From IMG/VR virus record IMGVR_UViG_3300009423_000003: a DNA stretch of 35,318 bases. One strand, 5' to 3'. The position numbers and the translations under genes were made by a program. The DNA comes from a virus. Within the stretch, counting starts at the first letter, position 1; every line of letters begins with the position of its first letter. Under the pieces are notes generated by a model, which was not told the DNA's origin, searched no databases, and saw nothing but the letters and a program-made list of their open reading frames with translations. Positions 13,202 through 35,318 of this stretch are shown piece by piece.

Positions 13202-13729
13202 ATGGCCGTAAATAAAAAAACAGGTACAATGAAAAACCCTGTAAAGATGGGCGCACAAATGATTAAAGGTTTAAAGGTTAAGTGGTCACACTTAGCAAAG
13301 CCTGATCTAGAGTATAACTCTGGACATAGTGTTACCGTAGAAATGAACGATGAACTAAAAAAACTGCATAAAGAAATGCAGGCACAGACTGGCGTTAAAC
13401 ATATAAATGGCTTAAGTGAATACGAAGGAGTAGAAACTGCTAAGTTTTCTACAAAAGTATATGTAAACGAAGGTGTTGAAAAGTTCCCTAGTATTTTTGA
13501 TACAGATGGTCAAAAGACAATGGATATACCTTTTGGTGGTGACGTAGTGAATCTTGTGTTTAAACCTAGAGAATGGGATAAGCCTAAGAAATCAATTAGT
13601 TGCTATTTACAAGAAATACAGGTGGTTGAAAAGAACGGTGGTGAGTCAGTTACATTTGCAAAGGTACAAGATAAGTCTAATGAGGTCACGTTTAGTGAAC
13701 AAAAAGATGAAGAAGCTCTACCGTTCTAA
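13202..13729 (+). CDS. ssDNA-binding protein (T7 gp2.5-like / DUF2815-like) with an acidic C-terminal tail
   Basis: SD taggagtataatATG. The C-terminus ...SEQKDEEALPF resembles the acidic SSB tail that ends in an aromatic residue (E. coli SSB DDDIPF, T7 gp2.5 ...DF). It sits in the replication/recombination module. Confidence 0.6.
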   Translation: MAVNKKTGTMKNPVKMGAQMIKGLKVKWSHLAKPDLEYNSGHSVTVEMNDELKKLHKEMQAQTGVKHINGLSEYEGVETAKFSTKVYVNEGVEKFPSIFDTDGQKTMDIPFGGDVVNLVFKPREWDKPKKSISCYLQEIQVVEKNGGESVTFAKVQDKSNEVTFSEQKDEEALPF

Positions 13730-14087
13730 ATTAGACGGTAAAGATAAGTTACATATTCAAAAACTACAACAGAAGTGGGATGAAGAAGTGAATAGTAAAG
13801 CAAAAGGTACAGGGTACGAGAACGAACTTGTAAAGAAGCTACAGGATGCTGGCTTTAAGAATGTTAAAAGAGCCTGGGGGTCGGATGGGCGTAGCTTTGG
13901 GGAAGCGCCTGATGTCGATATCAAAGCGGATGATATTTTAGTGCAAGCTAAAAGACGTAAGTCGATCCCTAAATGGCTCTCTTTAGGTAATTGTGATGCG
14001 GTCATGTTTCGAGAAGACAGGGGTATCACATTTGTATGTATGACTTTTGATGATTGGGTAGAATGTTTGAAAAATGTCCGCTTGTAG
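13707..14087 (+). CDS. Hjc/PD-(D/E)XK-type Holliday junction resolvase-like nuclease
   Basis: GTGYENELVKKLQDAGFKNVKRAWGS...PDVDIKADDILVQAKRRK fits the Hjc-like layout (G..E..L...L...G..V.R...S...D....(E/Q).K). The start was trimmed to ATG 13707. The longer track ORF overlaps the SSB gene. Confidence 0.55.
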   Translation: MKKLYRSKLDGKDKLHIQKLQQKWDEEVNSKAKGTGYENELVKKLQDAGFKNVKRAWGSDGRSFGEAPDVDIKADDILVQAKRRKSIPKWLSLGNCDAVMFREDRGITFVCMTFDDWVECLKNVRL

Positions 14088-14590: not shown

Positions 14591-14953
14591 ATGGCTGATA
14601 AAACATTAGAAAAAATTAAGATTACGGAAAAGATGGAAAATGAATATCCTGTAATGACAAAAAGATTTAAACAGCTACAGCGAGAGCAGTACGAATTGTT
14701 CTGTAGAAAACAGCACGATTACGGTAGTGGTAATATTTCTGTAGGTACGAACCTGGAAACAGCAGAAGAAGTGCATATGTCACTATCTGGTATATGGTTT
14801 CGTATGAACGATAAAATAGAACGAGCAAAGAACCTTATTATGCGGAAGGGTAGTTCTGCCGTTGAAGATGAGCCTTTAGAAGATGCGTTCTTAGATTTAA
14901 GCAATTATGGTATTATGGCCACACTTGTAAAAGAACAAATCTGGGGGAGATAA
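14591..14953 (+). CDS. DUF1599-like all-alpha (MazG-like fold) protein
   Basis: Motifs KQHDYGSGN, RMNDKIERAKN and DAFLDLSNYG match my recollection of the DUF1599 family pattern (K..DYG, R..DK..R, D..D..NY). Confidence 0.55.
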   Translation: MADKTLEKIKITEKMENEYPVMTKRFKQLQREQYELFCRKQHDYGSGNISVGTNLETAEEVHMSLSGIWFRMNDKIERAKNLIMRKGSSAVEDEPLEDAFLDLSNYGIMATLVKEQIWGR

Positions 14954-15357
14954 TGTGGAGAAAATTCAACCCTAAAAAACGCGGAAACTTTACTGGTATA
15001 TATGCTTTATACCAAGACCATAATCTTGTATACATTGGTTACACAACAAATGTCTACAGTCGATTAAGAAAGCACGAGATAAGTTATGACCTGGCAAAAT
15101 ATAAACAGGTTGATGACCACAATATAGCGAAAGCTCTGGAAGAAAAACTTATTAAGAGGCTTACTCCAACTTTTAACAAAGATTTTATAAAGCCTGATGT
15201 AGAAACAAAGGCATTTTCCTGTCAATTAGAGCTTGACGTATGGAAAGCATTAAAGATTAAACACGCGATCAAAGACAAACCTGTTGCGGACATTGTGAAT
15301 GAGGCATTGCGTGAACAACTAAAAAGGTGGGTGGAAATTGGAAACCAAGCTAGTTAG
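14953..15357 (+). CDS. GIY-YIG nuclease with a C-terminal ribbon-helix-helix-like domain
   Basis: GIYALYQDHNLVYIGYTTNVYSRLRKHE contains GIY, a 9-aa spacer, YIG and a conserved Arg. The C-terminus FSCQLELDVWKALKIKHAIKDKPVADIVNEALREQL looks like an RHH domain. Confidence 0.8.
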   Translation: MWRKFNPKKRGNFTGIYALYQDHNLVYIGYTTNVYSRLRKHEISYDLAKYKQVDDHNIAKALEEKLIKRLTPTFNKDFIKPDVETKAFSCQLELDVWKALKIKHAIKDKPVADIVNEALREQLKRWVEIGNQAS

Positions 15358-15461: not shown

Positions 15462-16109
15462 ATGGCAAAAACAAAAGCACATACAGCGTATAAGTTAAAA
15501 GACGGCTCTAGGGCAAAAGGGGTTACAACCATTCTAAATAACTTAGGGTGGAATAAGAATATACTAGTGGCCTGGGCCAGGAGAACTGCACTAGCAGGAG
15601 AAGACCCAGAGGCAGTATTAAAAGAGGCAGGCACGATCGGTACATTGGCGCATTATTTATGCGAAAGTCATATTAAAGGTGAAAAGCCTGAGATGTCTGA
15701 TTATTCTGCGGAGCAAATAGAAAAAGCTGAGAATGCTTTTTTAGGATACCTTGAGTGGGAGAAGATGACTAAGCCAAAGTATGAAGCGATTGAGCTTAAG
15801 ATGGTATCGGAAAAGTATAGAGTAGGTGGTACTGCGGACTTTATAGCCAGGATAAATGGCACATTGGTTTTGGGAGATTTTAAGACGAGCAAGGGTATCT
15901 ATCCAGAAATGACGGCTCAACTCGCAGCCTATCGGAAGATGTACCTGGAATTACAGCCTAAAGCGAAGATTGAGTCGGCTATGATACTCAAGCTTGATAA
16001 GAACTCTGGTGCATTCTCGCATCACTTTGTAGGGAAATCACAGCTTGACTGGGGATGGAGAGTGTTTAAGTGTTGTATGGAGCTTGATAAATTACAGAAG
16101 GAGATATAG
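15462..16109 (+). CDS. RecB/Cas4-like PD-(D/E)XK exonuclease
   Basis: GTLAHYLCE, GGTADFIARINGTLVLGDFKTSK (D...D-x-K) and QLAAYRKM (the QxxxY motif typical of the RecB nuclease family). Confidence 0.75.
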   Translation: MAKTKAHTAYKLKDGSRAKGVTTILNNLGWNKNILVAWARRTALAGEDPEAVLKEAGTIGTLAHYLCESHIKGEKPEMSDYSAEQIEKAENAFLGYLEWEKMTKPKYEAIELKMVSEKYRVGGTADFIARINGTLVLGDFKTSKGIYPEMTAQLAAYRKMYLELQPKAKIESAMILKLDKNSGAFSHHFVGKSQLDWGWRVFKCCMELDKLQKEI

Positions 16110-16642: not shown

Positions 16643-16731
16643 TGAAAGACGAGAGCACTTGCTGTAATGCACCTATAATTTTGACTGACATATGCTCAGA
16701 TTGTAAAGAGCATTGTGATAAGGAGAACTAA
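16642..16731 (+). CDS. 29-aa Cys-rich micro-ORF (MKDESTCCNAPIILTDICSDCKEHCDKEN)
   Basis: Translated by hand. ATAATG overlap with the upstream stop. Its TAA shares bases with the ATG at 16731. It contains 5 Cys. Confidence 0.3.
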   Translation: MKDESTCCNAPIILTDICSDCKEHCDKEN

Positions 16732-17278
16732 TGTGGATCATACCCAAGAACTTACCCACCTATCTCTATGTACAGGATACGAAGGGATTGGTAGAGGACT
16801 CAGAAGAATTTTTCCAAATGTCAGAGAAATCGCTTATGTGGAGATCGAAGCCTTCGCAATCGCAAACTTGGTCGCGAAGATGGAAGAGGATGTCATACAT
16901 CCGACACCTGTCTATACGGACCTTAAAACTTTCCCATTCGCAGAGTTTCGTGGAGTCGTGGACTTCCTTAGTGCAGGATTTCCATGTCAACCTTTCTCTG
17001 CCGCTGGTCGCAGAGCTTCCACAGAAGATCCTCGACATTTATATCCCTACATCGCTAGAGGAATCACAGAGTGCAGACCAACTTATGTTATTCTTGAAAA
17101 TGTCGAAGGGATTATCAGTAGTAAAACAGCCGATGGCGAGTCGGTACTCAAGTATGTCCTCGGAGATTTGGAAGAAAGAGGTTATAAAACAGCGTGGACT
17201 TTGGTCTCAGCGAGTGAAGTTGGCGCTCCACACCAGCGGAAGAGAGTTTTTATCTTGGCCCACAGCGAGACTAAGTGA
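16715..17278 (+). CDS. DNA (cytosine-5) methyltransferase, N-terminal catalytic half (motifs I-VIII, frame 2)
   Basis: Motif I LSLCTGYEGIG, motif IV GFPCQPFS (16979-17002), motif VI ENV (17096-17104) and motif VIII QRKRVFILAH. The start is probably GTG 16733, downstream of AAGGAG. The ORF stops at TGA 17276-17278 with no TRD or motifs IX-X. Confidence 0.9.
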   Translation: MIRRTNVDHTQELTHLSLCTGYEGIGRGLRRIFPNVREIAYVEIEAFAIANLVAKMEEDVIHPTPVYTDLKTFPFAEFRGVVDFLSAGFPCQPFSAAGRRASTEDPRHLYPYIARGITECRPTYVILENVEGIISSKTADGESVLKYVLGDLEERGYKTAWTLVSASEVGAPHQRKRVFILAHSETK

Positions 17279-17897
17279 TGGTGAGGGTGGTAGAATTGAA
17301 ACCGTTCTTAATAAAACTGGATTTAAAAGCAAAAGAAAAGCATCTAATCAATTTTTTGGTGCAAAATTAAGGGATGCAGTAGAGACTTATGAGAATTGGC
17401 CTACAGCAGATGCGACCAATATTAGCGATGGAGTACCCTGGGAAATATCTGGAAAACAGCTTGAGGAAAGAAGAGCTAGAGTTAAAAAGGCGGTCAAAGA
17501 GGGAAAAACTAAAGCTGGGAGTGGCAGATCGGTCAATTTGGCGATGGCGGTACAGAGGGAAATGTCTTGGTCTACACCAAACACAATGGATCACTTACCA
17601 CCAAAAGAAAGAGAGGCAATGGAAAGAATTTATGAAACGCATAGGAAAGGAGAAAAATCATGTCTAAAAATTGGCCTGCAAGACCAAAACAAGAGCAATA
17701 TAGATGGGAAGAACCAAGAGTCGTGGGGAACACCGAAAGAACAAGACAGTCGAGCGGCAATGAGCGACAGGAAAAAAAGCAACTTAGGAGAACAGGCTCA
17801 GAACAAGACCGGAAAAAAGCTCAATCCGAATTGGGTGGAACAATTGATGGGTCTACCAGTAGGGTGGACTCAACTACCAACCGAGTGGACAGATTGA
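17256..17897 (+). CDS. C5-methyltransferase target-recognition region, in frame 3
   Basis: Repeated W-P/S/G-T-P/A modules (SWPTARLSDGEGG, NWPTADATNISDG, SWSTPNTMD, SWGTPKEQD) and LNPNWVEQLMGLPVGWT are typical of the C-terminal half of phage C5-MTases. It is out of frame with the catalytic half, and no convincing start of its own was found. Confidence 0.65.
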   Translation, partial: WPTARLSDGEGGRIETVLNKTGFKSKRKASNQFFGAKLRDAVETYENWPTADATNISDGVPWEISGKQLEERRARVKKAVKEGKTKAGSGRSVNLAMAVQREMSWSTPNTMDHLPPKEREAMERIYETHRKGEKSCLKIGLQDQNKSNIDGKNQESWGTPKEQDSRAAMSDRKKSNLGEQAQNKTGKKLNPNWVEQLMGLPVGWTQLPTEWTD

Positions 17898-17977
17898 GAT
17901 TGTTAGGAAATGGCGTAGTGCCGCAGATGTGTGAACGCGCGTTGCGAATACTATTGAGGGATGTTCATGCCAAATAA
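17882..17977 (+). other. C5-methyltransferase motif X segment, back in frame 2 (RVDRLRLLGNGVVPQMCERALRILL...)
   Basis: The (R)LxxLGNxVVP motif X lies in frame 2, just past the frame-3 stop at 17895-17897. Confidence 0.65.
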
Positions 17978-18063
17978 GGAAGCCAAGAATCGTAAGCGTT
18001 TAAAACGCAAAAAGACGTTAGAGATAAAGCAATATAAAGCACAAAAAAGAAGAGAAAGAAAAG

Positions 18064-18249
18064 ATGCCAAAAAAGATTAAAAAAGCACTACAGCAAGACG
18101 ATTGGAAGAGATGGAAGCGTAAATGGCCGTACAAAAGCATAGAGGATCCAAAGTATATACGCGAGAAAAAAGCTACATTGATTAAAAACGGCAATGGGTG
18201 GTGGTACGATAAAGGATATAGAAGGTCTTTAGTTGAACAGTATAGTTAA
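18064..18249 (+). CDS. Small basic hypothetical protein
   Basis: ORF track. An alternative 37-aa basic ORF at 17967..18080 overlaps it, so the choice between them is uncertain. Confidence 0.4.
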   Translation: MPKKIKKALQQDDWKRWKRKWPYKSIEDPKYIREKKATLIKNGNGWWYDKGYRRSLVEQYS

Positions 18250-18307
18250 CACTCTAAATAAATGCTTAATAGATAATAAAGAGGTCTATGTGTAATAATT
18301 GATTTAG

Positions 18308-18368
18308 GGCTAGACAGAAAAGATTGTTTAATAGTTAATTAGTTATCTAAACAAAAAACCGTCTAGCC
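18308..18368. repeat. Nested inverted repeat upstream of the primase gene
   Basis: Outer arms GGCTAGAC (18308-18315) and GTCTAGCC (18361-18368). Inner arms TTGTTTA (18324-18330) and TAAACAA (18348-18354). The core is AGTTAATTAGTTA. Confidence 0.5.
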
Positions 18369-18392
18369 TTAATTCAACTAAGAGGAATATGT

Positions 18393-19154
18393 ATGATAGA
18401 TAATGTGTTTAATTTATTTGAAAGCTATGTAAAAAACATAAGAAAGGCTAGTAAGCCTGGTAATTGGGTAGGCCTATGTCCTTTTCACGAAGAGAAAACA
18501 CCAAGCTTTTATTTTGATGAAGAGGGGCTATATAATTGTTTTGGCTGCAATACGAAGGGAAATGCGATAACTTTTGCAAAAGCGTTCGGAGAAGAGGCTC
18601 TAGAATTGCCCAAAATAGAGAGATCTAAACGTAAGGTGAAGGAATGGTCACCTCCAAAACCGCTAGATCCTCATAGATGGTTTGATGTATTAAATCAGGC
18701 CGTTGACAATTTACTGTTTAATTACGATGATATTGTAGGTGATTTTCCCTGGGATAAGCGTATTGTTAAGAAATTATACATAGGTTACGATGAAGGTACG
18801 TTCTTGTTTCCATATTTTAACCATGAGGGGCGCTTGGTCAACATAAAATGGCACAAAAAGAAACAGGTGACTGGTCACGCGACTACATATATCTATCCGA
18901 TGTGGCATATGCTCCGAAAATATAGAGGTGACAAGACATTGTATATTGTTGAAGGTGAAAAAGATTGTGTTTCTATGATTTCTAGTGGCAAACAGGCGAT
19001 ATCTTTTAGCAATGGAGCCAATTGCACCCCTGCGGATGAGTTATTGGGTATGGTTACAAGTAAATTTAGCGATATTTCGGTTATTTTTGATGATGATGAG
19101 GCAGGAAAGAAAGCGGAAGCTAAGATGATTGAGTATGGTAATGCCAAAGTTTAG
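18393..19154 (+). CDS. DNA primase (CHC2 zinc finger + TOPRIM), truncated within TOPRIM
   Basis: CPFHEEKTPSFYFDEEGLYNCFGC (CHC2). TOPRIM Glu YIVEGEKDC and DxD FDDDEAG. The ORF ends 15 codons after the DxD motif. Confidence 0.9.
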   Translation: MIDNVFNLFESYVKNIRKASKPGNWVGLCPFHEEKTPSFYFDEEGLYNCFGCNTKGNAITFAKAFGEEALELPKIERSKRKVKEWSPPKPLDPHRWFDVLNQAVDNLLFNYDDIVGDFPWDKRIVKKLYIGYDEGTFLFPYFNHEGRLVNIKWHKKKQVTGHATTYIYPMWHMLRKYRGDKTLYIVEGEKDCVSMISSGKQAISFSNGANCTPADELLGMVTSKFSDISVIFDDDEAGKKAEAKMIEYGNAKV

Positions 19155-20253
19155 AAAATCAGATATAGAATTGCAGAATGGGGAAGATTTGACCGATTTT
19201 TTACAGCGTAATGGTAAAATTACCGATGAAAAGGTAGTCAAGAACGGCACAAGTGTATTGCAGGGTATGGATATATGGGATACTCCAAGCCGAGATGTAG
19301 AGTGGGCGGTTAAGGATATGATTCCGATGCGTAAAAAGACAGTAGCTGTTGGTGATTTCGAGGCAGGGAAGAGCTATTTGTACCTGGGGGCAGCCTTATC
19401 TATTGCAGGAGGGAAGACTGGGTATATCGGATTTGAGATACCAAAGATGCGTAAAGTGTTGTATGTGGATCTAGAGAATGGTATCGATGAAACACTTGGC
19501 AGGATACGGAAGTTAACTGTTGGGCATCAGATTGATAAGTTAAAAGCATCAGATAATCTAACGCTTATTACGAAGCCAGGTGATTTTGAAGAGGTATTTC
19601 CGCTTATAGAGACACAAGTTTTAGTGCAAAAGCCAGATGTGATAATTATAGACAACCTCTATCAGCTTTCTGGCGCAAGTAATATATCGGATGCAGATAA
19701 GATAAAGCCGTTGTTGACTAAGATAGAGAGATTAAAGGAAAAGAGCGATGCTGCGCTAGTGGTGATACATCATTTTAACAAGAATACACAAGACCAGGGG
19801 GTTGCTGAAGAGAGAATGGCAGGGTCAAGTGTGCTTAATTGGTGGTATGAGCATTGTTTGCTTTTGTGTAAGACAAATCAAGACTTTAGTTTACTTGCGA
19901 TAGGCAAGAGTCGTATGGGTTCTAAGAATCCTGGAGTCTATGGTATAGAGATAAACGATCAACCACAAGGTGGTGTAGCGGTAGAGTGCGGTGGCCTGGT
20001 TTCTAGTGATAAGATCAAGGGTCTGGTCATTCCAGAGCCTCGCAAGACAAAGTGGGAGCATCACTTGAGTAGAATGGCGGATGATTTTGAGACATACGAG
20101 TGGTTAAATGTCTGTGGGGATACTCAGGATGACAAAGTGTCTGATGGTACAGCGCATAGGTGGTTAGGGGAGATGGCAGCGGTTGGAATAGTTAAAAAAT
20201 TGTCTCATGGTAGGTATAAAAAGACCAAAATGACCTTTTATGAGACAGATTAG
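19129..20253 (+). CDS. RecA-fold replicative helicase (RepA/DnaB-like) whose N-terminus carries the last TOPRIM motif
   Basis: N-terminus ...DIELQNGEDLTDFLQRNGK. Walker A GDFEAGKSY and Walker B PDVIIIDNL. Frame 1 opens right after TGA 19126-19128. Confidence 0.85.
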   Translation: MSMVMPKFRKSDIELQNGEDLTDFLQRNGKITDEKVVKNGTSVLQGMDIWDTPSRDVEWAVKDMIPMRKKTVAVGDFEAGKSYLYLGAALSIAGGKTGYIGFEIPKMRKVLYVDLENGIDETLGRIRKLTVGHQIDKLKASDNLTLITKPGDFEEVFPLIETQVLVQKPDVIIIDNLYQLSGASNISDADKIKPLLTKIERLKEKSDAALVVIHHFNKNTQDQGVAEERMAGSSVLNWWYEHCLLLCKTNQDFSLLAIGKSRMGSKNPGVYGIEINDQPQGGVAVECGGLVSSDKIKGLVIPEPRKTKWEHHLSRMADDFETYEWLNVCGDTQDDKVSDGTAHRWLGEMAAVGIVKKLSHGRYKKTKMTFYETD

Positions 20254-20449
20254 GCCTGGGGGGAGGGTATGAGAGTTTTGATAGTTTTGATAGTTTCAAG
20301 CCTCCAAACTCTCAATACTCTCAATACTAACGCACCCTCACTCCCTATTTTCTACCTTTTTAGTAGAATTTTTGGGAAAAACCCTCATTCAAACTCACAT
20401 TCAAACTATCATTACCCTTACCCTGTAGATATAAATATAAAAATACCCT
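20254..20449. repeat. Non-coding repeat field (candidate replication origin or regulatory region)
   Basis: Tandem 9-mers AGTTTTGAT x2 plus AGTTTCAAG (20274-20300). CTCAATACT x2 (20311-20328). CATTCAAACT x2 (20386-20407), which are roughly the reverse complement of the first set. Hairpin TTCTAC/GTAGAA. An iteron-like copy lies at 20413-20447. Confidence 0.45.
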
Positions 20450-20794
20450 ATGTCAGATAATATAGAAGACCCTTTAAGCAGTATTATAGATAAGTTAGAT
20501 CTGAAGTTGACTGACCCTTTGTCAGATGATATAAAAGAGTATCTAAGTGATAAGTATCATCATAATCAATGCAACTTAGGTAGGCCAGAGTTAGACTATT
20601 ATTGTATGTTAGCTTATAAAGATGAGAACGATAAGCTACTATGTGGTGCTATCTTAAATTGGTCAAAACATCTTCAGGTAGAGGGGCTGCGTAAGTGCTT
20701 CTTGCTTATGAAGTATGAGCATAAGTTGGCTGAAGCGAATCGTAGGCGCAAGGGTAACTTTACAGGTCCTAAACACAAGAAGCTTAATAGATAG
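20450..20794 (+). CDS. Hypothetical protein
   Basis: ORF track. No clear SD. Confidence 0.45.
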   Translation: MSDNIEDPLSSIIDKLDLKLTDPLSDDIKEYLSDKYHHNQCNLGRPELDYYCMLAYKDENDKLLCGAILNWSKHLQVEGLRKCFLLMKYEHKLAEANRRRKGNFTGPKHKKLNR

Positions 20795-20822
20795 TTACCC
20801 TTTCGATCTTATTATAAGATTT

Positions 20823-20975
20823 CTAAGCCTCACTCTCTTTTACAATATCCATATAGCAACCTGGAATATCATCGATACTAATTTTATTATTTTCCAAGTC
20901 TCCAATAATATTGTAAATATTCAAAGCTTCTTGCTCTAAAGCTTCTATGATTTTTGTTTTTTCGTTTATTATCAT
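20823..20975 (-). CDS. 50-aa hypothetical protein, not in the ORF track (MIINEKTKIIEALEQEALNIYNIIGDLENNKISIDDIPGCYMDIVKESEA)
   Basis: Translated by hand from the reverse complement. ATGA overlap with the stop of 20972..21193. Confidence 0.45.
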   Translation of the reverse strand: MIINEKTKIIEALEQEALNIYNIIGDLENNKISIDDIPGCYMDIVKESEA

Positions 20976-21193
20976 AGCTGCACCTCGCTTTCTTTTATTA
21001 ACTCAACTCGTTCGTTGTCGTATAAAGTCCAATCCACTTGATCACTACCCTCATCGCATTTATCCCAGGCGCTTATGCCTTTCATTACAGCCGAATTTTC
21101 AATATAATAACATCTACCCTTTATAGTGATATATAAAGAATCTTCTGATGTTATATTGACAATTACCCCCCTATGTTTTATTGTTTTACTCAT
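20972..21193 (-). CDS. Hypothetical 73-aa protein
   Basis: ORF track. SD context AACGAAAGGGTAATAAAATG. Confidence 0.6.
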   Translation of the reverse strand: MSKTIKHRGVIVNITSEDSLYITIKGRCYYIENSAVMKGISAWDKCDEGSDQVDWTLYDNERVELIKESEVQL

Positions 21194-21194
21194 T

Positions 21195-21326
21195 TTATTA
21201 CCCTTTCGTTATTAATATAAAAATCAATTATTACCCTTTATAGAATAATATAAAAATCAATTATTACCCTTTGTAGAATAATATAAAAATCAATTATTAC
21301 CCTTTGTAGAATAATATAAAAAATTA
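21195..21326. repeat. Four tandem 33-bp direct repeats (iteron-like)
   Basis: Units start at 21195, 21228, 21261 and 21294, with an exact 33-bp period. Consensus on the plus strand is TTATTACCCTTTGTAGAATAATATAAAAATCAA. The first unit is degenerate and the last is truncated at the stop of the upstream ORF. Confidence 0.9.
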
Positions 21327-21470
21327 AACCTGGTTTTGGTTAATTTTAACTTTTGAACGTCTTTTAATTTCGTTCTCGCATTGCCTTCTAAATGATATAG
21401 AATATTTTTTAATACCATATATGACAATTACAAGTTGTAAGCCGTTAAGCTGCGCAACGGTTTTATTCAT
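21324..21470 (-). CDS. 48-aa basic hypothetical protein, not in the ORF track (MNKTVAQLNGLQLVIVIYGIKKYSISFRRQCENEIKRRSKVKINQNQV)
   Basis: Translated by hand. SD AAAGAGGTTGATTTATG. Confidence 0.4.
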   Translation of the reverse strand: MNKTVAQLNGLQLVIVIYGIKKYSISFRRQCENEIKRRSKVKINQNQV

Positions 21471-21564
21471 AAATCAACCTCTTTAAATGTTAAAAAATAT
21501 TAACATAAAAATCCATACGCTCATGATAAATACAAGCGTAATAAATTCTTTAAATAATCTAAAT

Positions 21565-21869: not shown

Positions 21870-22472
21870 TTAATGAATTATAAGACCTACATTTTTCGTT
21901 GAATTATACCACCTGGTTGCATATAAATCGAATTCTGAGCTGTCCGTATAATTAGCTTTTTTCAATGCCTCAAGGCTCTCAAATATTTTTGCGTGCCTGT
22001 CCGTTTTTTGGTCAACGAATTTATTTTGCTTACCACTATCCGAAAATATAAAATCAAAATTAATTGGAATTGATTTTAAATTCTTAATCATGGTTATGTT
22101 ATTAGTGTAGGAATAGAATTTAACATCAGGATTATCTTGAGCAATTTGAAACCATTTTAAAAGATATTGTTTGCTGTAATAGTCGCCTGAATCGTGCACC
22201 CTGATATATTCGGCCTTCTTGTCTTTTATATCCTTATTCATAGCCTCAACAAAGTCATTTTTTAAAGTGGCTTTAAGTTTTAATTCCATCCACTTAGACG
22301 CCATTTTGTACATACCTTTTTGAGCATAACAAAATTTAATACAGGCGTCCGCCATTGGACAAGTTACCATACCACTTTTAGATTTATAGGCAGGAATTGA
22401 AAAATTATACAGGCGTACATTAAAATGTTTACCTGTCTTTTTTATCTTGCTGTTTTGTGTCAATAAGTTCAT
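21870..22472 (-). CDS. GP88-like domain protein (Cys cluster CPMADACIKFCYA, HDSGD motif), function unknown
   Basis: The pattern TCP...C...CYA ... vHDSGDyys ... FYsYT matches my recollection of the phage gene-product-88 family. Confidence 0.6.
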   Translation of the reverse strand: MNLLTQNSKIKKTGKHFNVRLYNFSIPAYKSKSGMVTCPMADACIKFCYAQKGMYKMASKWMELKLKATLKNDFVEAMNKDIKDKKAEYIRVHDSGDYYSKQYLLKWFQIAQDNPDVKFYSYTNNITMIKNLKSIPINFDFIFSDSGKQNKFVDQKTDRHAKIFESLEALKKANYTDSSEFDLYATRWYNSTKNVGLIIH

Positions 22473-35171: not shown

Positions 35172-35318
35172 AATAGCATTTGTAATTACAGCTTGGGTGT
35201 TTATTCTTTCTTGCGCTCCTAATGTTATGGGCAATAGAATATTAGACAACAAAGATATTTCTCATGTTTACTTAATAGACGAGATTTATAACGGAAAAAG
35301 TTATTGGTGCATAAAACA
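35158..35318 (+). CDS. 5' part of the 72-aa lipobox-containing protein (continues at base 124 of the circularised genome, ends at 181)
   Basis: SD tAGGAtcaacaATG. Signal-like MVVIRIAFVITAWVFILSC with lipobox-like ILSC. It runs off the window end inside the terminal repeat. Confidence 0.5.
   Translation, partial: MVVIRIAFVITAWVFILSCAPNVMGNRILDNKDISHVYLIDEIYNGKSYWCIK
35196..35318. repeat. Terminal direct repeat, copy B (exact duplicate of 1..123)
   Basis: Same 123 nt as the window start. It lies inside an ORF, which fits a circular-assembly overlap or terminal redundancy. Confidence 0.95.

Follow-up and report, generated by a model that had tools for sequence, protein, structure and literature searches.

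A T7 gp4/Twinkle-type primase-helicase of a marine phage is encoded as two overlapping genes that divide its TOPRIM domain

In the primase-helicases T7 gp4 and mitochondrial Twinkle both activities lie on one chain, which consists of a zinc ribbon, a DnaG-type TOPRIM primase, a linker and a superfamily 4 hexameric helicase. The two Mg2+ ions of T7 gp4 are held by D207, D209 and D237 (PMC12839067). A TOPRIM metal site divided between two proteins is known from T4 topoisomerase II, whose large subunit is split into gp39 and gp60 and which is active; phages T2 and T6 carry the fused form, and the split came about by insertion of the MobA homing endonuclease, which left extension tails at the C- and N-termini and a cassette for translational bypass (bioRxiv 10.1101/2022.08.31.505936; PMC11461880). 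Here, we analyzed the adjacent primase and helicase genes of IMG/VR virus record IMGVR_UViG_3300009423_000003, a stretch of 35,318 nucleotides (nt) that is called the window below. Unlike T7 gp4 and Twinkle, the enzyme of the window is cut inside TOPRIM, between α3 and β4. It is encoded by two genes whose split is conserved, with purifying selection on the genes and on the TOPRIM motif at the start of the helicase, with homology to the fused enzymes and with no frameshift signals. We consider it likely that these are coupled genes which arose by fission inside the TOPRIM domain of a gp4/Twinkle-type enzyme, and that the helicase completes TOPRIM in trans. The parts of the locus that carry this argument are as follows.

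18393-19154, plus strand: primase gene, 253 amino acids, with a zinc ribbon, an N-terminal RNA-polymerase subdomain and TOPRIM β1-α3
18477-18548, plus strand: CHC2 zinc-binding motif (CPFH...CFGC; C29-C52), which aligns with the zinc-binding domains of 1d0q and 2au3
18939-18965, plus strand: TOPRIM β1 and catalytic Glu, LYIVEGEKD, amino acids 183-191 (Pfam, family profile, AlphaFold2 (AF2) strand 183-186)
19086-19106, plus strand: TOPRIM β3 and DxD metal-binding motif, FDDDEAG, amino acids 232-238 (Pfam, family profile, AF2 strand 228-231)
19107-19139, plus strand: TOPRIM helix α3, KKAEAKMIEYG, the last structural element in the primase gene (AF2 helix 236-248)
19141-19154, plus strand: stop/start overlap of 14 nt, from the helicase ATG at 19141 to the primase TAG at 19152-19154 (an ATG and an overlapping stop occur in five junction forms)
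19141-20253, plus strand: helicase gene, 370 amino acids from the conserved ATG, in the +1 frame relative to the primase; RepA/gp4-type (AAA_25, 3.4e-24)
19159-19215, plus strand: TOPRIM β4 (SDIEL), acidic loop (NGEDLTD) and α4 (TDFLQRNG) in the helicase gene (Pfam match of the fusion, profile, AF2)
19351-19374, plus strand: Walker A motif GDFEAGKS of the RecA-fold helicase core (Pfam; conserved in relatives)

The primase open reading frame (ORF1) has the N-terminal CHC2 zinc ribbon of DnaG-type primases (Pfam Zn_ribbon_DnaG, 1.1e-15), while its Toprim_2 match is restricted to profile positions 1-64 of 88. It stops 15 codons past FDDDEAG with the C-terminus ...KMIEYGNAKV; the polypeptide thus terminates in the α3-β4 loop, and it carries no helicase-binding domain. 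A complete TOPRIM domain (β1-α1-β2-α2-β3-α3-β4-α4 with Glu, DxD and the third acidic motif) is not found in one polypeptide, and the fold is whole only across both gene products, with β4, Asp16 (codon at 19186-19188) and α4 encoded by the helicase frame (ORF2). This +1 frame opens at 19129 after a TGA at 19126-19128 and reads LSMVMPKFRKSDIELQNGEDLTDFLQRNGK before it runs into the helicase. The in-frame upstream starts, ATG 19135 and TTG 19129, are not conserved, and judging from relatives, in some of which a stop directly precedes it, the conserved helicase start is ATG 19141. The source annotation (P0275) begins the helicase at ATG 19135 and gives it 372 amino acids. The first-pass annotation of this DNA had proposed a TOPRIM domain divided between two ORFs in a +1 relation, and each of its statements about the sequence was confirmed in the letters.

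In order to follow the TOPRIM domain across the gene boundary, the two reading frames were joined in a virtual +1 fusion. The fusion completes the Toprim_2 match (positions 1-88 of 88, with the score rising from 24.8 to 30.4 bits) and gives a Toprim_3 match over positions 2-94 of 95. A family profile made of virtual fusions and truly fused homologs matched T7 gp4 with an expect value (E) of 1.5e-17 in both domains; the TOPRIM alignment extends past the gene boundary and places the invariant helicase Asp16 on T7 D237. With the same profile, 6n7i, 5ikn and 1q57 were matched in both domains with E values of about 1e-17, Twinkle (8e2l) was matched as a single stretch across the junction (positions 125-486), and the match to RSF1010 RepA covers the helicase core. 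The alignment with Aquifex DnaG (2au3) is likewise collinear across the junction. In addition, fused T7 gp4-like relatives, as had been expected, do exist (P0013, P0107, P0109 and an ORF of L022), and they carry the same motif in the same place; the fused L022 ORF reads ...DND...EKSDIYNIILPDEIGEKGDITDFF... Since T7 D237 holds catalytic Mg2+, one metal ligand and one of the four β-strands of this TOPRIM domain are here encoded by the helicase gene.

The AF2 model of the virtual fusion had a mean predicted local distance difference test score (pLDDT) of 83, and helicase residues ~3-21 formed TOPRIM β4 and α4 with a pLDDT of 81-86. The elements follow each other in the order β1 (183-186), α1, β2, α2, β3 (228-231), α3 (236-248), gene boundary, β4 (252-254) and α4 (265-270), after which come a disordered linker and the helicase. 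A Foldseek search with this model returned T7 gp4 first (9e-19, 482 columns), and Twinkle was also top-ranked. The downstream ORF had been read as a RecA-fold helicase from its Walker A motif, and this holds: Walker A and B motifs and the RecA core of the RepA/AAA_25 class are present, with GDFEAGKS and IIIDNLYQL conserved, and the core matched RepA 1g8y in the profile search (E 1.9e-11) and 1nlf in Foldseek with a target-normalized TM-score (TMt) of 0.70 (range 0.70-0.73 for 1nlf and 1olo). Taken together, four independent lines of evidence show that the N-terminus of the helicase is the end of the TOPRIM domain, and that the split of TOPRIM over two frames is real, far beyond chance.

The same boundary was found in 12 helicase clusters (51-95% identity, 367-373 amino acids), in which RKxDIxLxxGxDxTDFL starts 3-6 residues past the Met, and in 36 primase clusters (32-97% identity, 242-262 amino acids except for three shorter ones that are apparently partial). 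The JGI, ENA, Logan and Tara collections supplied these clusters, which comprise hundreds of contigs, and about 27 loci from independent metagenomes were inspected at the nucleotide level. The helicase lies in the +1 frame relative to the primase in 17 of 17 IMG/VR loci, and no fused form was found among relatives above roughly 30% identity in the primase and helicase clusters. Both genes are under purifying selection, with a ratio of nonsynonymous to synonymous change (ω) of 0.11-0.30 for the primase and 0.05-0.14 for the helicase at synonymous divergences (dS) from 0.2 to saturation. In the helicase motif, Asp16 and Leu11 are invariant across relatives, and Gly14, Thr18 and Leu21 are nearly so. 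The first-pass annotation had held that separate ORFs with this boundary in all close relatives, alongside an active primase lacking the motif, would speak against its reading; the boundary is indeed uniform, but the motif has moved to the helicase rather than been lost. Short primase ORFs in L005, L006, L014 and L016 were considered as interrupted genes and rejected, as they have non-ATG starts and no internal stops.

The split also occurs in a neighboring clade (P0106, P0296 and P0309; loci L040-L043), where its structural position is identical and the helicase lies in the -1 frame. In these loci, the primase ends with ...DNDNAGKVGIKKLAERLFIEI followed by the stop, the helicase starts with MKKIKIAQWREGLPEGYDISD, the overlap is a 4-nt ATGA (TTGA in L040), and there is only one open codon upstream of the helicase start. 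The loci of P0106, P0309 and P0296 were located by exact contig look-up; relatives of P0106 in the metagenome collection are helicase-only genes, and no viral-contig loci were found for P0132 and P0221. The nearest relatives of the -1 clade are fused. In an exhaustive profile search, most of the nearest outgroups were fused proteins of 615-665 amino acids, with split and helicase-only forms interspersed (P0105 is fused, as are the four relatives named above). In a helicase-domain tree, the window clade formed one group, the -1 split forms adjoined fused forms, and split and fused forms interleaved. All split lineages retain the motif, and it is missing precisely from those helicases that have no primase next to them. 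It seems that fission, fusion or recombination has taken place repeatedly in the α3-β4 loop. In the L029-L033 clade, the primase is ~55% identical to that of the window and the helicase is very divergent (1.6e-25 against the family profile), a pattern which suggests that helicase modules have been swapped together with their β4/α4 peptide at a recombination breakpoint at the gene junction.

In the explanation that we consider likely, a T7 gp4/Twinkle-type primase-helicase would have been split by fission in the α3-β4 loop of TOPRIM. The primase chain (253 amino acids) would keep the zinc ribbon and TOPRIM β1-α3 with Glu and DxD, and the helicase chain (370 amino acids) would supply, in its first ~25 residues, β4, the third acidic metal-binding loop (with Asp16 corresponding to T7 D237) and α4, followed by a flexible linker and a RepA-like hexameric helicase core. 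Ribosomes stopping at the primase stop would restart at the overlapping ATG, so that both proteins would be made in about the same quantity. The peptide at the N-terminus of the helicase would then dock as the edge strand of the incomplete primase TOPRIM sheet, which would both tether the primase, having no other helicase-binding domain, to the helicase and complete the catalytic metal site; priming activity would be found only in the primase-helicase complex. Coupling by reinitiation, completion of the domain in trans and catalysis that depends on the complex are proposed here, and the purifying selection on both parts suggests that the fragments assemble into an active enzyme. That the primase active site is an obligate two-chain assembly, to which the helicase peptide gives β4 and the third Mg2+-binding Asp at a repeatedly used split point, is in our judgment evenly balanced between true and false. 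If it is true, priming would be impossible unless the primase is plugged onto the helicase, which would make a built-in switch that limits priming to loaded forks, and the α3-β4 loop would be a permissive point of fission and fusion, used repeatedly (+1 and -1) and serving as a breakpoint for helicase-module swaps.

An unlikely though serious alternative is that the two genes are simply separate and nothing is completed in trans, the truncated primase working by itself or not at all and the motif in the helicase being a vestige, a docking tag or an element with a non-catalytic role in helicase loading. The core TOPRIM triad (Glu and DxD) is complete within ORF1, and there are helicase-only relatives with neither the motif nor an adjacent primase, which shows that the helicase core does not need the motif. 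However, a vestige would not retain an invariant Asp16 and nearly invariant Gly14, Thr18 and Leu21 at saturated dS, nor does this alternative fit a motif that follows the adjacent primase through every split lineage, a β4 that is one of only four TOPRIM strands with a residue equivalent to the Mg2+-coordinating T7 D237, or a primase devoid of any other domain for binding the helicase.

The sequences of the junction bear on how the second gene is translated. Five forms of the +1 junction were found.

Window: ATGCCAAAGTTTAG, overlap 14 nt
L001 group: ATGGCAAAAGCTAG, overlap 14 nt
L005/L007 group: ATGCGTAA, overlap 8 nt
L024/L028 group: ATGGGTAG, overlap 8 nt
L029 group: ATGCGATTAGTTAA, overlap 14 nt

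All five have in common only that the helicase starts with an ATG and overlaps the primase stop, and the primase frame keeps this ATG as xAT-Gxx although the adjacent tail residues vary. In L001-type loci the ATG is itself the first open codon of the helicase frame; the frame opens one codon earlier in L028, 0-5 codons ahead of the ATG in most loci and 20 codons ahead in L024. L028 had been taken as non-overlapping, with the helicase called 13 nt past the primase stop; this was rejected, as an upstream ATG had been missed and the usual 8-nt overlap is present. The overlap at 19141-19154 is likely the site of translational coupling. A conserved Shine-Dalgarno sequence before the helicase ATG (purine runs GAGGA, AGGA and AAGG) was also considered and was dropped after duplex energies were compared with the local background, since only a subset of the loci has a strong duplex (-6.1 and -5.6 kcal/mol).

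Programmed +1 frameshifting within 19129-19151, which would yield a gp4-like fusion of ~619 amino acids, possibly beside the separate products, is a very improbable explanation of these junctions. Such a fusion would restore a complete TOPRIM domain and the gp4-like architecture, all clades related to the window show the +1 relation, and re-pairing of tRNA-Lys would be possible on AAA-G in the window and on AAA-A in L001, with GGG-UAG in L024 weakly resembling a shift at a stop. However, no slippery site common to the five junction forms was found, and the AAA-G that the first-pass annotation had singled out is replaced at equivalent positions in relatives by AAA-A, GAA-G, CAA-A or GCG-T. Frameshift sites combine a conserved shift-prone codon with a stop or a slow codon in the A site, with or without a Shine-Dalgarno sequence ~3 nt upstream, and here the junctions differ between clades; they also have a downstream ORF that lacks its own conserved start and is open well upstream, and here the permissive window for a change of frame is just 11 nt in L001 and ~8 nt in L028, always starting with the conserved ATG. 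No RNA structure was detected at the junction in six representative loci (z-scores of -1.6 to +0.6), and no Shine-Dalgarno sequence was found at prfB-like spacing from the stop. Furthermore, a single 1-nt fission, once inherited, would give a conserved +1 relation anyway. In the sister clade, the split is at the same point in the -1 frame with one open codon upstream of ATGA, which shows that a +1 shift cannot be the common mechanism, while stop/start coupling can. Recoding, the first of the explanations offered earlier, is therefore not borne out.

That a truly fused gene was broken by a 1-nt error of assembly or sequencing, or was inactivated recently by mutation, is refuted by the comparison with relatives and exceedingly improbable, for although fused genes are the commonest state among more distant relatives and one indel would suffice for the observed geometry, the identical boundary recurs in hundreds of contigs and in the ~27 inspected loci with diverged junctions, both genes are under purifying selection at dS up to saturation, and no relative above roughly 30% identity is fused. 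The first-pass idea of a splitting mutation stands only as an ancient event; the mutation was not an inactivating one, since the split is fixed, under selection and evidently functional.

Several points weigh against coupled genes with a TOPRIM domain completed in trans. Assembly in trans is argued from conservation together with a model in which an artificial fusion forms a single chain. The control model of the helicase alone was poor overall (pLDDT 59.8), which makes the contrast in N-terminal confidence weak evidence. The Shine-Dalgarno duplex is at background in the window (-2.2 kcal/mol) and in the L029 group, and initiation of the helicase there has to rely on coupling; many genes of the window phage likewise have no Shine-Dalgarno sequence. 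The helicase-domain tree is a rough neighbor-joining tree without support values, and since a single origin is possible for all +1 clades, their shared frame relation is not independent evidence. Finally, low-level frameshifting may occur in individual lineages, for example at AAA-A in L001 or GGG-UAG in L024.

The window comes from a marine metagenome and is the genome of a temperate tailed phage (35.3 kb, 37% G+C) with genes for an integrase, a large terminase, a major head protein, a tape-measure-like protein and a tail fiber. Its ends share an exact repeat of 123 nt (1-123 = 35196-35318), which is either a direct terminal repeat or the assembly overlap of a circular or circularly permuted molecule, and with either origin the window is probably a complete phage genome. 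When the DNA of 17500-21500 was searched against 50,697 phage records, the sole match was one of 50 nt to a methyltransferase, and there is no cultured or annotated close relative among these records. Further features near the primase and helicase are as follows.

13202-13729: T7 Gp2.5-like single-stranded DNA-binding/annealing protein
14953-15357: ORF with a GIY-YIG domain, a possible homing endonuclease
15462-16109: PD-(D/E)XK exonuclease
16715-17977, plus strand: C5-cytosine DNA methyltransferase, spread over three overlapping ORFs
16715-17278, plus strand: first methyltransferase ORF (mA), frame f; Pfam DNA_methylase positions 3-163, 1.7e-33
16731-17897, plus strand: second methyltransferase ORF (mB), 388 amino acids, frame f+1; carries SWPTARLSDG... 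and ends ...LMGLPVGWT
17645-17977, plus strand: third methyltransferase ORF (mC), frame f, open from 17645; LLGNGVVPQ is motif X
20149-20226, plus strand: possible helix-turn-helix or winged-helix-like region at the C-terminus of the helicase (weak: sub-threshold Pfam matches DIP2311-like_C and Cdc6_C; AF2 helical elements)
21870-22472, minus strand: ORF downstream of the helicase, Pfam GP88 (PF17338, 9.7e-32)

The first three of these form an upstream replication and recombination module. The GIY-YIG ORF, the nearest of its kind, lies ~3 kb upstream, and no DNA polymerase was recognized in a scan that covered part of the ORFs of the window. The order of GIY-YIG, exonuclease and primase genes recurs in the distant L024 clade, which has no methyltransferase gene. 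The overlapping ORFs 13202-13729 and 13554-14087 were considered as another frame split and rejected, as they are two ordinary genes for the single-stranded DNA-binding protein and a RusA-like resolvase.

The methyltransferase has two conserved changes of frame. When the ORFs are joined via a +1 change (~17250-17276) and a -1 change (~17870-17895), the resulting protein of 422 amino acids aligns in one piece with single-ORF mycobacteriophage methyltransferases (30% identity, E 2e-34). The layout of three ORFs is kept in six relatives (L005, L006, L008, L009, L013 and L017). The +1 frame over all of mA is free of stops in five divergent sequences, while shuffling of synonymous codons gives an expectation of 4.5-6.6 stops (P <= 0.002 each), and dS is 0.2-0.3 in the overlap compared with 0.9-1.5 in the unique part of mB. 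The gene appears to code in two frames along a stretch of 183 codons. The conserved TAAGGAG-N6-7-ATG belongs to mB, and the sole conserved candidate start of mA is an overlapping GTG (ATGTG). These data point to real dual coding or to an enzyme of several polypeptides, for which M.AquI and M.EcoHK31I offer a comparison. In Paenibacillus phages Bloom, Jacopo and others (H40-H46), the methyltransferase is annotated as two genes and matches the virtual protein in three pieces, and a split or frame-interrupted methyltransferase may be widespread beyond the marine clade.

We found no earlier description of a split DnaG-type TOPRIM domain in open-access papers and bioRxiv, and the conserved split variant of the gp4/Twinkle-type primase-helicase is apparently undescribed. 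For annotation, the 250-amino-acid "truncated" primases and 370-amino-acid helicases of marine phage metagenomes should be treated neither as pseudogenes nor as fusions to be "corrected" or recoding events. If the active site is completed in trans, the locus would encode a natural split-enzyme primosome of the gp4/Twinkle type in which the same peptide serves catalysis and helicase tethering. It would also offer a simple system for studying how primase and helicase are coupled (two small proteins, or the primase and a 25-residue peptide) and a permissive split site in DnaG-type TOPRIM domains of possible use in protein engineering.

Compared with known systems, the window resembles T7 gp4 and Twinkle in domain order and in all catalytic motifs, with collinear, homologous primase and superfamily 4 helicase domains, and as in T7, a Gp2.5-like single-stranded DNA-binding protein is encoded nearby. 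In contrast to their single polypeptide, the window and every relative down to ~30% identity have two ORFs, which lie in different frames; in addition, the helicase core is nearer to RepA/AAA_25 than to DnaB_C, with a putative winged-helix-like extension at its C-terminus. Primase and hexameric helicase are separate polypeptides in RSF1010, whose RepA is a superfamily 4 plasmid helicase, in T4 gp61/gp41 and in DnaG/DnaB, as in the window. However, each protein in those systems has complete domains and there are dedicated interaction domains, such as the C-terminal domain of DnaG, whereas the primase of the window has no such domain and the proposed interface is the missing piece of its own catalytic fold. 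With +1 frameshifting in prfB, antizyme and Ty1/Ty3, the window shares two overlapping ORFs in the +1 relation whose fusion makes a sensible protein, but it has no conserved shift-prone codon, no hungry codon or stop context and no stimulatory Shine-Dalgarno sequence or structure, and its start codon is conserved. The closest precedent is T4 gp39/gp60, as in both cases a TOPRIM metal site is spread over two polypeptides and fused orthologues exist. Unlike in T4, no mobile cassette is found at the split: nothing has been inserted, there are no extra tails, and the ORFs overlap by 4-14 nt. In addition, the divided enzyme is here a DnaG-type primase rather than a topoisomerase, and its second fragment is fused to the partner helicase.

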